Of a stretch of DNA of 62,436 bases, positions 53,601 through 57,533 are shown one piece after another. Origin of the DNA: a virus (taxonomy: Duplodnaviria > Caudoviricetes); IMG/VR virus record IMGVR_UViG_3300023440_000005, positions 1 to 62,436 of that record. One strand, given 5' to 3'. The notes under the pieces were generated by a model. That model saw nothing but the letters and a program-made list of their open reading frames with translations. It was not told the DNA's origin and made no database searches. Position 1 is the first letter of the stretch. Every line of letters begins with the position of its first letter. Made by a program: the position numbers and the translations under genes.

Positions 53601-54772
53601 CTACTAGCTGGAATGTTAACATCCCTAATCGACTTTAAAATCTTACCCTTAAGAATATCTTTTGGGTTAACATAGGTCATGACGGCATTAACATCAATAT
53701 CCCCCACCACGATTTTCTTTTTATGTACACTACCATCATTAGATACAATAACCCCCATATCACTTAGAGTGCTAGAAGTTACCGCATTAAGTATGGTCAT
53801 ATCTTTATCTACATCTAATATCTCAAGACCGGTATTGTCAGATGTGTTAACCTCATCTTCTGACTCTACATCAGAAATAGTTAAAGGTTCATCATTAACG
53901 GCTATATCGATGGCAGCTTGTAGACTCATAAGTGCTTTTATAAAGAATTTACCAAGTTGAATACTAGATATATTGGAGTTAGTTTTGACATCAGATAGGT
54001 CATGACCTTTAATCCAACTACGCAAGTAACCTAAATTCATGATAATACTTTTATCACTTTCATTAGTGAAAATAATACTTATCTTAGATAGACCCTTTTC
54101 ATCTAGAACCGCCATGCTACTAAGGGGGGATTCTACTACTAACCATCTCCATAGATCAAGTATATTAAGCATACTTTGATCAGTAAAGACCTCAGATATA
54201 TGCAGAGTAGTATTACTCTCATATATCTTTAGTAACTTTATACTAGGTAATAACTTAGGTAGATAATAATGGACATATTGATGTCTAGAATATATGCTAG
54301 CTTCATTAACATAGAGCCATAGACGTTTTCTTACATTGAACCATTTGAAGTATTCATGATATCCTGAATTAGTATATTTATAACTTTTATTGATATAACT
54401 AAAGTTAGCCATTGTCAATAAAAGAGGATTATCTGTACTTATGTAAGGTAGCTCCTTAGGTTTAAACTGTTTATTATCAGTAAAGAATTTTCTACTTAAA
54501 GCTTTAACATTAGAATGGACTTTTGTATACCTACCTTCAGGATTTATTAAATCTGTAACTATATCCGTATAAACAACACGATTGTAGTTTGATAACACTC
54601 CAATATTGCTAGATAGATCTACACTATGATTTTCATCAGCAATATAGTTATATGATGCCGATTTAGGTAATTCTTTAAGTATGAAAATTGGAGGATTAAG
54701 TAACTGTGCTAGTTTTCTTATCCCATTCTTTTTATAAAATATTTCTTGTGTTAGCATATTACCATTCTCCAA
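50618..54772 (-). CDS. Virion RNA polymerase beta subunit (phiKZ gp178-like)
   Basis: 1384 aa; QRIDLPIRKI, ALTSYYGK, RIRGYER, TY.GEGGRS, DDGKRVNFVNIQ, FEDSSA, GVGDKAIFANQLKS. Confidence 0.92.
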   Translation of the reverse strand: MENGNMLTQEIFYKKNGIRKLAQLLNPPIFILKELPKSASYNYIADENHSVDLSSNIGVLSNYNRVVYTDIVTDLINPEGRYTKVHSNVKALSRKFFTDNKQFKPKELPYISTDNPLLLTMANFSYINKSYKYTNSGYHEYFKWFNVRKRLWLYVNEASIYSRHQYVHYYLPKLLPSIKLLKIYESNTTLHISEVFTDQSMLNILDLWRWLVVESPLSSMAVLDEKGLSKISIIFTNESDKSIIMNLGYLRSWIKGHDLSDVKTNSNISSIQLGKFFIKALMSLQAAIDIAVNDEPLTISDVESEDEVNTSDNTGLEILDVDKDMTILNAVTSSTLSDMGVIVSNDGSVHKKKIVVGDIDVNAVMTYVNPKDILKGKILKSIRDVNIPASSAKSYLTAIDEFSRSDNPYTGTAISDFIKLSSDDLTLDTDVVKIVASDLVQDKSMLESSLLSFNTKYVTEVLDKDIMRSINDIQNAGIVIKKHEILPIEDKLGSYDMHTLTIKPIDGAQSTIKFKLPKVNDHGIMMVNGKEVVMRIQRIDLPIRKIQPNVVALTSYYGKIFITRSSRKNDSSTEWLVKRIRLLGLDESSNISKVAPADVYTNTFEAPYLYNSLAKHFKSFVSGDITFNLDHVDRSDIANTTPLAKVEANGRVIGSSTDGSIIIMDYDDNLHSYSKGVFTELGSLYDVVGVDKKKAPMDITELRVFRKHIPLGIVLAYYFGFTGLLKLLSVTYKTSAELRYRPSENEYIIKFQNITYIFSKDDVEVSLILAGFNKYKKILIGFKDDEMDNSDVYFNLLTSMKLGPIYIRELDLLKDMFIDSITLTILEARNEPTTFIGMLLYSNKLLLDFNTPDSQDLQYMRIRGYERMAGMIYSQMVQSIRSFRNRNIAGRAKVNVGNYDIWNKIVKDNSTKLIEQTNPIQNLKEVEVLTYTGEGGRSTETLNRASRAFHKSDLGVVSEATVDSSAVGVNSYLSANPNIGSLRGIMSKNKQLTNSSLFSTSMLLAPSSDKDDGKRVNFVNIQNTHTIAAEAYRQPYVRTGYEYVIGKRTSEEFSYSARLDGVVKSIDTDGIIIEYSDGKKKGIKLGPIYGAAEGTYYPHNIIPNIKEGVKFKKGDVIAYNENFFEPDILDPTEIVYKTSFPVTTAIYESNQTFEDSSAVSKMVTDSFKTTVSKPKIITLTFDQNVYDLIKVGSKVKPHDILLVIEDDITSSLGIFSSDSLSALKKIASQTPKSHYNGTIGKIEIFYNGDKAEMSDTLRKIADKYDRKISSYSKSSGGNLTNNRVTSDLNVGGKPLQPNTIAIYIYTDIVEDMGVGDKAIFANQLKSVIGEVMDYDMATESGKTINAVFGYRSISARIVNSPILIGTTITLLKIIAKRAIEVYKS

Positions 54773-55445
54773 AAGAAGGGGTTAGAGATTCTAACCCTAA
54801 CGAATCCAATTTCACATGTCTATATTCATCTTCAGGTATAGGGGAAAGTTCTATAGTATTATTCAACCTTAAATCCCCAATAAGTTTATAGTATCCTTTA
54901 CCTATCACACCCCCTTTGTTAGATACTTTTATATCATATTTATCTTTAATGTGCAGATAGGCTTCTATAACAGCTGTAAGTTTATGACCCCCATTACGCT
55001 CATGGATTATTTTTTGTATGAGTATTTGACCTATCGTTTTGGGGGCATATCTATATGTAGATTTATTGTAAGTTACTAACCACACTTCTTTAGTTAAATT
55101 AGCATCAAATACTAGTTTATTAGTAGGCTTCAATCCCTCTACGAAGGGTAAGATATTTATGTCATATATTGCGCCATAAGAACCATTATTTTTATAGTAA
55201 ATATGATCCCCCGTTACATCCCCATACCCGATAAGACAACCCATGATTGACGGAGCAACTGTTATACGAGGTATGGTACGATCCTCTTGACTTGCAGCTC
55301 TAGGGGATATTCTAGGATAATACCATCTTGGAGTTTTAGGATCAATGTGTAACATGTAATCTTGATTTTCGGTAGTAGAAGTAACTACTTTAATATTGCG
55401 TTGTACTAAAGGAGATTGTAATTCTAGATATTCTGTTATATTCAT
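54759..55445 (-). CDS. Conserved hypothetical (probable head) protein between the vRNAP subunits
   Basis: PRI...A...EDRTIPRITVAP...GC..G; C-terminal GLESLTPSFGEW. Confidence 0.65.
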   Translation of the reverse strand: MNITEYLELQSPLVQRNIKVVTSTTENQDYMLHIDPKTPRWYYPRISPRAASQEDRTIPRITVAPSIMGCLIGYGDVTGDHIYYKNNGSYGAIYDINILPFVEGLKPTNKLVFDANLTKEVWLVTYNKSTYRYAPKTIGQILIQKIIHERNGGHKLTAVIEAYLHIKDKYDIKVSNKGGVIGKGYYKLIGDLRLNNTIELSPIPEDEYRHVKLDSLGLESLTPSFGEW

Positions 55446-55448
55446 TAG

Positions 55449-55604
55449 TTAACTCGTCATATTCGTAACCACCAATTCACTGGTGTCATCATATAAATTA
55501 AAAAACATTTTACCATTAATATTGATGTATAGATCCCTGTTATACATCTTGCGCTTAGCTTCTAGCTTAGCTTCTTCTGTTAATAGTAGTGTAAAGGATA
55601 TTGT
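55449..55604 (-). CDS. Virion RNAP beta' (gp180-like), exon 3 (TISFTLLLTEEAK...VVTNMTS*)
   Basis: 51-codon frame starting right after the intron's terminal G (55605); supplies the expected sequence after DFDGD; stop lies 3 nt before the next ATG. Confidence 0.8.
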   Translation of the reverse strand, partial: TISFTLLLTEEAKLEAKRKMYNRDLYININGKMFFNLYDDTSELVVTNMTS

Positions 55605-56032
55605 CAGTTTCTTCGGATAACCTCGTTACGATTATCCCGCAGCATTATCTGCAGCTTATACAGTTAGTATAATGTAGAGACCATATCACCACCCCCGTGA
55701 ATACGGTAGGGTGCTTCCCGTTTCCCTATCACTGATAGGTACACCGTGGTTAGCGGTTGGTCGTTGATCACATCCCACTGAATAACATAGAGGGACTTCG
55801 AGGCTGATTGCACATTGTTAATAACACTTAGACTTACTATCATCATATGTCATATACATGATTGTTTCTACTTTCGTAGCCGTAATAGTCTGCCATTTCT
55901 AGCTATCTATGGTGGCTCATGTATCTTTAGCACGTTCCAGCAGTTAGAGAAGTAACTACTCGACTATTACTAGCCGGTAGGACAGTGTAACGATTAGTAC
56001 GTTACCAAGTACAATAAATTGTACTAATCGTT
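55605..56032 (-). mobile_element. Group I intron (IA2-like, 428 nt, no endonuclease ORF)
   Basis: P AACTGCTGGAA (55935-55945), Q AATCAGC, R TCAACGACCA, S GATATGGTC; P7 GACCA/TGGTC; P3 CTTCTC/GGGAAG; P7.1/P7.2, P8 and P9 hairpins; GNRA loops; preceded by exon T and ends in G. Confidence 0.88.
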
Positions 56033-56038
56033 ATCACC
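56033..56038 (-). CDS. Putative 6-nt micro-exon GGTGAT (Gly-Asp) of the DFDGD motif
   Basis: Best-placed source of the missing GD, upstream of the ribozyme core; preceded by G and ends in T, as group I splice sites require. Confidence 0.62.
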
Positions 56039-56084
56039 CTAAATAGGTGAATCTGCTAGTAGGTATAACATAGCAGATACATTA
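56039..56084 (-). other. 46-nt mini-intron-like insert
   Basis: TAATGTATCTGCTATGTTATACCTACTAGCAGATTCACCTATTTAG; follows exon T, ends in G, contains an 8-bp hairpin ATCTGCTA/TAGCAGAT; no catalytic core. Confidence 0.55.
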
Positions 56085-57533
56085 ATCAAAGTCAGCACCC
56101 ATCCTTCCTAGGTACCTATGTGGAATATTAAGAGTATCAAAAAAACCAGTATCTTTTATAGGGAATTCCTTAGCTATAAATGGGGTAGGTTGTAGATCGC
56201 TATCTAACTCATAGAGCACTAGTGATTTATTGGTAGTTCTTAAATAAGCATAAATTAAATTAATACTACCATATCCAGTTATAGGGTATCGTGTTATAAG
56301 ACCGGGTATCTCATCAGACCCCTTATATACGGATAGATATAATAACTCTGATAACGTTATTGGATTGAGATTAACTCTAAGATCTTCAGGTATAGTATTT
56401 TTATCATATACTACCCTATACCCTTTGCCATCATTATATAAGAGCGCTAGATAATGATCTTCTATTTCAATAACATCATGACGGATATCGCTTATACCAA
56501 ATTTAGCTACAGTCTTTTCTATACCGTCGTAAGTCATCCATTCATCATAGGTTTCAGGGGCAATATCAACACTTACCCGTTCTAATGTTTTCTTATCTAT
56601 AAGAAATGCGGCACTATCAGAACCTACAAATATATTAGATAAATATGTATCACGTATATTTTTAACCGTTAGAGGTAAAGTAGATCTCAGATATTCATGC
56701 ATACCTACTATACACTGTTTAGAAGTTACATTGTTAGGATCTCCTAAGCGCTTCATACTCCGTATACTACTACTTAAAACATTTCTAGTGCTATTGAATA
56801 TATTCCTAGATATCCACTTACCTTGTATAAGCTTACCCTTTCCTTTTAAGAGATCCTCTATATATAAGTAGAGATCCAGTATAACTGTTTGTAGAGTATA
56901 TCTACTAGAGTCTAGAAGTTCTAAGTTTTGTTTAACCGTTATACCCTCTATGGAATTACTTATGCCTAAAATACGTTTATAGAAACCATTGACCTCATCT
57001 TCGGAAGGGGTTCCGGTGCTATCCACGAAGTAATCCCTTATACCAGCTGGCATGACTACTAGTTTATCAATAATGTGGTTATCTATATACTTTTCAATAA
57101 GAGCTATATTATACTCTCTTTGTGAACTATCAGTTTTAACTAATTTAAGTTCTTTTATATGCGATAAGAAAAAACTATAACCAGTATCGCCATCAACTGG
57201 TGATGCTGGCTCAAAGTCTAGAGTCTCCGTATTAAAGGTAGCGAATTTCTTACCACTCAATATATCCCCATAGAATGCTTTTAGTTTAACTATGAGTTTA
57301 AAAAATAAAGGATGCATAACTGTTATATTTAAATTAATATAACTAAATATACGATTACGACTCTCTTCTCCTACCTTACCAAAAATCTCAGTACTAAAGA
57401 GACCTTCTGGATGGAAATTCTTAGTAGATCCTATAAACGTGTCTAATACCTTAACTGGCGATATCCCTTTCACATCACGATCTTTAGGAATAAGAAGTTC
57501 AATATTAAATGGTACTTGGGTCATATTTAACAC
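56085..57533 (-). CDS. Virion RNAP beta' (phiKZ gp180-like), exon 1
   Basis: FHPEGLFSTEIFG, VMPAGIRD, KGK...IQGKW.SR, TRYPITG; stops abruptly at MGADFD within the catalytic motif. Confidence 0.92.

Follow-up and report, generated by a model that had tools for sequence, protein, structure and literature searches.

The DFDGD motif of a virion RNA polymerase gene in three coding pieces: a 46-nt insert, a 6-nt micro-exon and a group I intron that may excise both inserts

How can a phage gene encode an intact catalytic motif if that motif is broken by two inserts, one of them only 46 nucleotides (nt) long? The question is raised by the gene for the N-terminal β′ subunit of a virion RNA polymerase (RNAP) on IMG/VR record IMGVR_UViG_3300023440_000005, a single 62,436-bp viral contig from a microbial-mat metagenome (33.7% G+C, completeness estimated at 23%), which in its whole length is called the window here. 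The DFDGD motif of this gene is interrupted by the 46-nt insert and, six bases further on, by a 428-nt group I intron. A folded core of ~200 nt or more is regarded as a requirement for group I introns. We propose that the two inserts would be removed in two consecutive group I splicing events, with the ribozyme of the 428-nt intron as the sole catalyst (probability about 0.55). The anatomy of the locus is solid; its mechanism we infer from the sequence.

Coding pieces and inserts of the β′ gene

All pieces of the gene lie on the minus strand. Exon 1 (57533–56085), an open reading frame (ORF) of 483 codons from a GTG, ends ...GADFD with U as its last base and runs into TAA. It is followed by the 46-nt insert (56084–56039), which begins with UAA (an in-frame stop) and ends in G, by the 6-nt micro-exon GGUGAU (GGTGAT in the DNA, 56038–56033), which provides the Gly-Asp lacking in DFDGD, by the 428-nt intron (56032–55605, AACG...AAACTG, terminal G at 55605), and by exon 2 (55604–55449; 51 codons, 55604–55452, and a stop), which begins TISFTLLL. 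The order on the minus strand is GCT GAC TTT GAT / TAA...TTTAG / GGT GAT / AACG...AAACTG / ACA ATA TCC. This three-piece layout had been proposed in an initial annotation of the window, and its lengths and coordinates were verified to the base. The group I end rules invoked there also held: both 5′ exons end in U (U56085 and U56033) and both inserts end in G (G56039 and G55605).

Joining the three pieces reproduced the 536-aa (amino acid) protein of that annotation, which carries DFDGD-TISF in frame. Removal of everything as one intron gives DFD-TISF, in which GD and with it the third catalytic Asp is gone. PHROG family phrog_2986 covered exon 1 at positions 4–486 of 539 (E 9.4e-159) and exon 2 at positions 489–539 of 539, so that exactly two positions were missing between the exons. 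On a custom profile of 58 full-length relatives, exon 1 spanned positions 2–484, exon 2 487–537 and DFDGD 482–486. Intact relatives read ADFDGDT[ITA]S here, and the motif is present in each of the four intact reference proteins. In the uninterrupted closest homolog (P0004, 66% identical), the sequence is GDFDGDTVSFTLLLTDEAK at the motif and GDTVSFTLLLTDEAK at exon 2. The need for DFDGD, assumed from the outset, was borne out to the extent that DFDGD-T-x-S occurs in every intact relative and is thus expected in the mature protein. The motif is restored only if both inserts are removed.

The β′ protein matched translated DNA (tblastn) in 309 phage records, the best being Bacillus phage AgentSmith (41.3% identity). 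Gp275 of Pseudomonas phage 201phi2-1 (38.7% identical), a virion protein whose annotation notes similarity to phiKZ gp180, is encoded next to a gp178-type β gene; in the window, a gp178-type β gene (phrog_3148, 54772–50618) likewise follows β′. Because of the full-length profile match, the annotation and synteny of gp275 and the phrog_3148 gene that follows, the interrupted gene is assigned as a phiKZ gp180-type virion RNAP β′ gene encoding the N-terminal β′ subunit, with a motif that is whole only when both inserts are removed. A DNA search of GenBank phages with the gene gave no match, and no close relatives of the window protein were found in IMG/VR.

The 46 nt are present in contigs of two samples, and no contig without them was seen, which makes the misassembly considered in the original proposal very improbable. 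Record 8 of run X2, the second sample, spans 55929–56418 with 0 differences and 0 gaps; contigs of run X1, possibly the source of the window contig, also hold the 46 nt. X1 and X2 are two samples of one single study. The k-mer depth of the phage was 40 in one sample, and the second sample contained it as well.

The 46-nt insert has a stop codon in all three frames. A repeat search detected one hairpin in it (H1, 56048–56081; 11-nt arms with one mismatch, 12-nt loop), which also appeared in minimum-energy folds. No Rfam family matched the 46 nt at E ≤ 10, and a catalytic core of its own (P3–P8 with a G-binding P7) was lacking, as had been supposed. No credible second copy of the insert with its flanks was found in the window or in ~1.5 Mb of related loci. 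Some GGNGAY within the 480 nt between the exons is not rare by chance, and two copies occur. The second GGTGAT (55690–55685, preceded by U) was rejected as an exon, since in the ribozyme core it falls where P8 meets J8-7. It is the position of GGUGAU at 56038–56033, as seen in the pairing of the guide sequence, that would mark it as a micro-exon, and not its mere occurrence. As parsed, the window combines the DFD/GD and DFDGD/T insertion sites.

The 428-nt intron and the fit of its guide sequence

The 428 nt matched Rfam family RF00028 from end to end (model 1–253; 36.5 bits, E 9.9e-8). The match appeared when 571 bases were searched alone or in a genome-level scan, and it was missed in 3-kb and 62-kb searches; phage introns below threshold are easily overlooked in routine Rfam scans. 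No other group I intron was found in the 62-kb contig (one match among 11 candidates). Infernal alignment placed the core helices P3, P4, P6, P7, P8, J8/7 and P9 within 56032–55605. The 3′ half of the catalytic core, comprising P7 (GACCA/UGGUC), P7.1, P7.2, P3′, P8 and J8/7, was placed by Infernal and RNAalifold at 55679–55762, with the P7.1 and P7.2 hairpins between P7 and P3′; two further hairpins follow P9 (to P9.2). P5 has an insertion of ~125 nt, which proved alignable with the extended P5 of a group I intron annotated in Clostridium phage D-1873 (61.9 bits for that intron). In an RNAalifold comparison of the P7–P9 half (P7, P7.1, P7.2, P8 and P9) of 13 β′ introns including that of the window, 17 of 22 pairs had double-sided changes. 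The closest relative was the intron of locus L122 (75% column identity), with paired changes in P3, P7 and P8. With P3–P9 present, compensatory changes in them, U56033·G55983 at the 5′ site and a terminal G55605, the 428 nt is, by its predicted fold, a group I intron, as first proposed. No ORF with a Pfam match was found inside it.

A first model made by hand, with the P7/P3/P8 core at 55830–55890, was rejected, since that stretch is the P5 extension common to the D-1873 intron. Two pattern scans were made for intron relatives: TACGAAAGTAGAAAMAAT gave 110 stretches, and the 80 loci listed were alike only in the P5 extension; TGGTGATATGGTCT gave 117, taken as mostly chance matches, with one weak match. 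The L122 intron starts with a degenerate copy of the exon end (L122:3959–3980, GAC-TTT-GAT-GGG-GCA-like), which begins 4 nt after the real exon end (...GAT GGT); going by this copy, the lineage seems to carry along exon fragments or to duplicate its target. Other contigs of X1 and X2 matched parts of the intron and the beginning of exon 2 (55559–55605 together with 55733–55767, and 55803–55878) with ~10–20% differences. One of them joins 55605 to 55733, without 127 nt of the P8–P9.2 region. These partial matches point to related introns or phages in the same community.

The 5′ part of the intron carries a 13-bp P1-extension hairpin (55988–56033; 100% complementary in a repeat search), the first pair of which uses the last U of the micro-exon. 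It is followed by the guide sequence (55981–55987), made up of CACU (55987–55984) and GUC (55983–55981), and directly 3′ of that by a P2 hairpin capped with a GUAA tetraloop (55956–55980), the same element as in the introns of L122, L119A, L124 and L141. The guide was placed by its position and covariation across the 17 introns, out of 21, that could be parsed (the 3′ boundary of that of L138, as used in the guide and family comparison, was one base off). In this family its place is immediately 5′ of a P2 with a GNRA cap, and its sequence changes together with the 5′ exon end: GUC goes with ...GAU, GUCG with ...CGAU, GGUC with ...GACU, GAUC with ...GAUU and GAGUCCC with ...GGGGACUU; in L142B, by eye, GUCUCC pairs with ...GGAGAU. 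An earlier reading of the window guide as GUUAC was replaced by GUC beside P2 after the family comparison. Exon 1 lies 104 nt from the guide, a spacing that varies from 10 to over 1000 nt in the family.

Exon 1 and the micro-exon both end in UGAU, so that the guide GUC fits either, with U·G at the splice site. The CACU flank pairs at all four positions with GGUG of the micro-exon and at one of four with ACAA, the intron's own 3′ exon; the chance of a 4/4 fit is ~0.02 by our own estimate (0.375 to the fourth power). The introns at the DFD/GD site in L119 and L188 likewise pair 4/4 with GGUG. Because GAU/GUC (P1) and GGUG/CACU (P10) meet at G56039, this base would stand at the 3′ splice-site position, and both helices form for the 46 nt only with the guide of the neighbouring intron. 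GGUG/CACU also lengthens the 13-bp hairpin to 17 bp with one bulged A, which is predicted to be 5.0 kcal/mol better than the hairpin alone, and P1 of the intron itself with the micro-exon is 1.8 kcal/mol worse than the same baseline. Excision of the 46 nt first would be favoured by these two values.

Two rounds of splicing and the competing explanations

In the first round of the proposed pathway, the guide GUC (55983–55981) would pair with the final GAU of exon 1 as P1, with U·G at the splice site, and the adjoining CACU (55987–55984) would pair with GGUG of the micro-exon as P10. With G56039 at the P1/P10 junction, the two helices and this G would be arranged as P1, P10 and the terminal G are when group I splicing reaches its second step. 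After attack of a guanosine at exon 1, G56039 would serve as the terminal G, exon 1 would be joined to GGUGAU and the 46 nt would be released. The ribozyme would thereby read the proximal G/GGUG as its 3′ splice site for the same reasons as an intron at the DFD/GD site does. In the second round the guide would re-pair with GAU of the micro-exon, the 428-nt intron would remove itself, and GGUGAU would be joined to ACAAUA, restoring DFDGD. From these pairings we infer the removal of the 46 nt, its catalyst and its order. The helper that the initial annotation had supposed for the 46 nt would be the adjacent ribozyme, acting through its own guide. That the locus is a natural "two-for-one" ribozyme, in which one core and one guide excise an upstream core-less 46-nt intron and then the intron that carries them, is given slightly less than even odds.

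Several observations speak against this pathway. The 36.5-bit match of the 428 nt falls below the curated gathering score of RF00028 (50 bits). Most family introns have a weak P10 or none: it reaches 3 bp or more in only four of the 17, and two of these four are near-identical. The end of the 46 nt can also pair with the micro-exon in a rival hairpin (UCACCU/GGGUGA), for which the predicted stability exceeds that of the P10-like helix by 2.2 kcal/mol. After the first round the GAU-GGUG junction would resemble the usual 5′ splice site of the family, so that the ribozyme could conceivably re-cleave there and skip the micro-exon, which makes the yield of correct mRNA uncertain. No counterpart of the core-less mini-intron was found among 17 related loci that are split at the motif. 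Three proteins in the database (P0005, P0006 and P0035) end immediately after DFD too, and the DNA that encodes them could not be located; no relatives of P0035 and P0006 were found in IMG/VR.

The 46 nt could also be a true intron that is removed otherwise than by the adjacent ribozyme in cis, e.g. by the excised 428-nt intron or another phage group I ribozyme acting in trans, by an endonuclease and an RNA ligase, or by minimal self-splicing. Such removal is considered unlikely. It answers the need for DFDGD equally well, and with only 23% of the genome in hand other ribozymes or enzymes may be encoded elsewhere; however, no ribozyme family matched the 46 nt, and the 62-kb contig holds no further group I match. 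Binding in trans would depend on only 3 + 4 base pairs, and the fit of the adjacent guide flank to GGUG would be left unexplained. For self-splicing, the available text of PMC3160393 reports putative group I introns of 56–81 nt (only P1, P7 and P10) that splice in vitro, and pairing with the 3′ exon, as in UCACCU/GGGUGA of the window, is a feature described there too.

Less probable still is a single 480-nt group I intron with its 5′ site after exon 1, the product of which would be DFD-TISF and the gene dead or in another role. On this reading GGUGAU would belong to the intron, as one strand of a lengthened P1 into which the 46 nt were inserted. GAU/GUC of exon 1 stacked on GGUG/CACU is indeed the usual P1 geometry of the intron family, the degenerate exon-end copy inside the L122 intron suggests that exon-like sequence can become intronic in this lineage, and tandem group I introns are known to skip an exon by use of a distal 5′ splice site (PMC10136302). 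However, no inspected homolog joins DFD straight to the following residues: 59 of the best 120 database homologs have both the full length (520 aa or more) and D-[FYW]-DGD, and every split locus that could be resolved restores DFDGD. An in-frame GGNGAY beside the hairpin would arise by chance at ~1/512, or ~1/8 if GGUG is granted as a mimic of the 3′ exon (both estimates). This explanation is rated low mainly because it requires a dead essential gene, and a dead virion polymerase is unlikely in a phage at k-mer depth 40 that is also present in a second sample.

Ribosomes might instead bypass the 46 nt after splicing of the intron, taking off at GAU before UAA. The bypass of T4 gene 60 spans a gap of ~50 nt and involves matched codons, a hairpin and a stop that follows the take-off codon. 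All of these recur in the window: the stop follows the take-off codon directly, the hairpin begins 3 nt later, the gap is ~50 nt, and a matching GAU lies 52 nt downstream, preceded by purine-rich AGGGUG. Unlike in gene 60, bypass here cannot yield the required product. After a hop from GAU to GAU, translation would continue with ACA and the product would be DFD-TISF, GD being lost; reading GGU GAU needs a landing on UAG, with which the peptidyl-tRNA cannot pair, an earlier GAU (in AGCAGAUUC) runs into a stop, and every other landing site meets a stop as well; bypass is therefore very improbable. Least probable is an assembly or sequencing artefact, conceivable for a metagenome contig with both holders from one study, since the contigs of the two samples match without reported gaps or insertions.

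Intron hot spot in relatives and known systems

Introns at or near the motif had been expected in relatives of the gene, and 17 of 80 related IMG/VR loci proved to be split there (profile positions 480–487). Fifteen group I introns above the Rfam cut-off were found in 12 of these 17 loci; none above it was found in L122, L125, L138, L187 and L169. Under the U...G rule, no fewer than five positions in a 15-nt stretch have taken up introns: those following the first Asp, DFD, DFDG and DFDGD, and one lying a single base into the Phe codon (the junctions of L122, L138 and L187 were set by hand, since the boundary script missed their U...G solution). In addition, a metagenome scan gave one distant uninterrupted locus (L004), and a scan of genome contigs gave an intact locus (L314) and one with a single intron after the first Asp (L315).

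The best 120 homologs reflect the same interruptions. Besides the 59 full-length proteins, 23 stop after D-x-D, two after D-x-DG and three after D-x-DGD. The other 33 were classed as "cut after first Asp or other", a class that includes six long proteins failing the pattern and at least one further D-x-DG case. About half of the 120 closest proteins end inside ADFDGD with short unrelated tails, e.g. RQHCRL and KQHCRF; the recurrence of these tails suggests a few widespread intron lineages.

The micro-exon idea gained ground from four related loci, in which micro-exons of 6 or 12 nt lie between two full-size group I introns inside DFDGD (L119:3947–4700, L188:3947–4702, L120:3950–4845 and L142:3950–4956). 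In L119, L188 and L120, exon 1 ends GAT and is followed by an intron, TTCGAT (6 nt), a second intron and GGTGAY; both introns pass the Rfam cut-off, and L188 is near-identical to L119 here. L142 has a 12-nt micro-exon, TTCGACGGAGAT; of its two introns, the downstream one is above the cut-off and the upstream one has core motifs recognised by eye only. Gene callers truncate β′ at these loci. They share with the window the gene, the motif, the intron family, the U...G rules and micro-exons for two or four residues. In contrast to the window, each of their inserts is full-size (339–635 nt) with core motifs, whereas the upstream insert of the window is a 46-nt remnant or insert. Three-piece assembly of the motif is, on this comparison, a recurring outcome of several introns homing into one motif; new in the window is the putative core-less 46-nt upstream intron.

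The text searches (subscription journals and supplements, e.g. the 2513 introns of PMC12880540, being outside their scope) gave no publication on these tandem-intron loci, no 6-nt micro-exon in phage RNAP genes and no core-less mini-intron beside a group I ribozyme. Within them, the claim that no such case had been described stood for a core-less 46-nt intron in a phage gene; it did not stand for short exons and mini-introns otherwise, which are in print.

Tandem group I introns around a short exon are described, in the accessible part of PMC10136302, for orf142 of Staphylococcus phage Twort (23 nt) and the 23S rRNA of Coxiella burnetii (34 nt). There too two group I-type inserts flank a very short exon, with a risk of exon skipping via the distal site, but both introns are full ribozymes and the exons have 23–34 nt, compared with an exon of 6 nt and an apparently core-less upstream intron in the window. 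The nuclear rRNA genes of fungi and lichens contain degenerate group I introns of 56–81 nt (Harris and Rogers 2011, PMC3160393). As far as the available text goes, these resemble the 46 nt in being very short, with group I-type ends, most of the core lacking and pairing with the 3′ exon; they differ in lying in eukaryotic rDNA with no neighbouring ribozyme and in being said to self-splice. The element of the window is shorter and interrupts a protein gene of a phage, and 6 nt separate it from a complete ribozyme with a fitting guide.

Engineered trans-excision-splicing ribozymes and "spliceozymes" cut internal segments from RNA (PMC2532722, PMC4094466, in their available text), and they show that the chemistry proposed here is possible. 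As would be the case in the window, the segment removed is internal and core-less, the guidance is of the P1/P10 type and a G ends the excised piece; those are laboratory constructs acting in trans, whereas the arrangement in the window would be natural and in cis. In PhiPA3 an intron with the homing endonuclease gp210 interrupts the virion RNAP β gene (Birkholz et al. 2024, PMC11620839, available text). There too a group I intron has entered a virion RNAP subunit gene of a jumbo phage where conserved catalytic Asp residues are encoded, but the gene is β (gp178 type), the intron is single and the endonuclease is of the HNH type, whereas the intron of the window has no recognisable ORF.

If the two-round pathway is correct, the locus would be a natural cis counterpart of the engineered excision ribozymes and a natural case of one ribozyme handling two pairs of splice sites, so far only engineered. 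It would also offer a route by which a mobile intron could shrink to some tens of bases without loss of function in the gene that hosts it. By the survey of relatives, the Mg-binding DFDGD motif of jumbo-phage virion RNAPs is a crowded homing site, with micro-exons of 6 and 12 nt that escape gene callers.

Two minor observations concern the surroundings of the gene. An ORF of 228 aa (54759–55445, minus strand; phrog_5043, no Pfam match) lies between the β′ and β genes of the window, whereas the two polymerase genes adjoin directly in 201phi2-1 and FLC9. At the start of the β′ ORF (57509–57533, minus strand), the listed start is GTG (MLNMTQVPF...), and a start three codons later, at an ATG (MTQVPF), would agree just as well with where the homologs begin.

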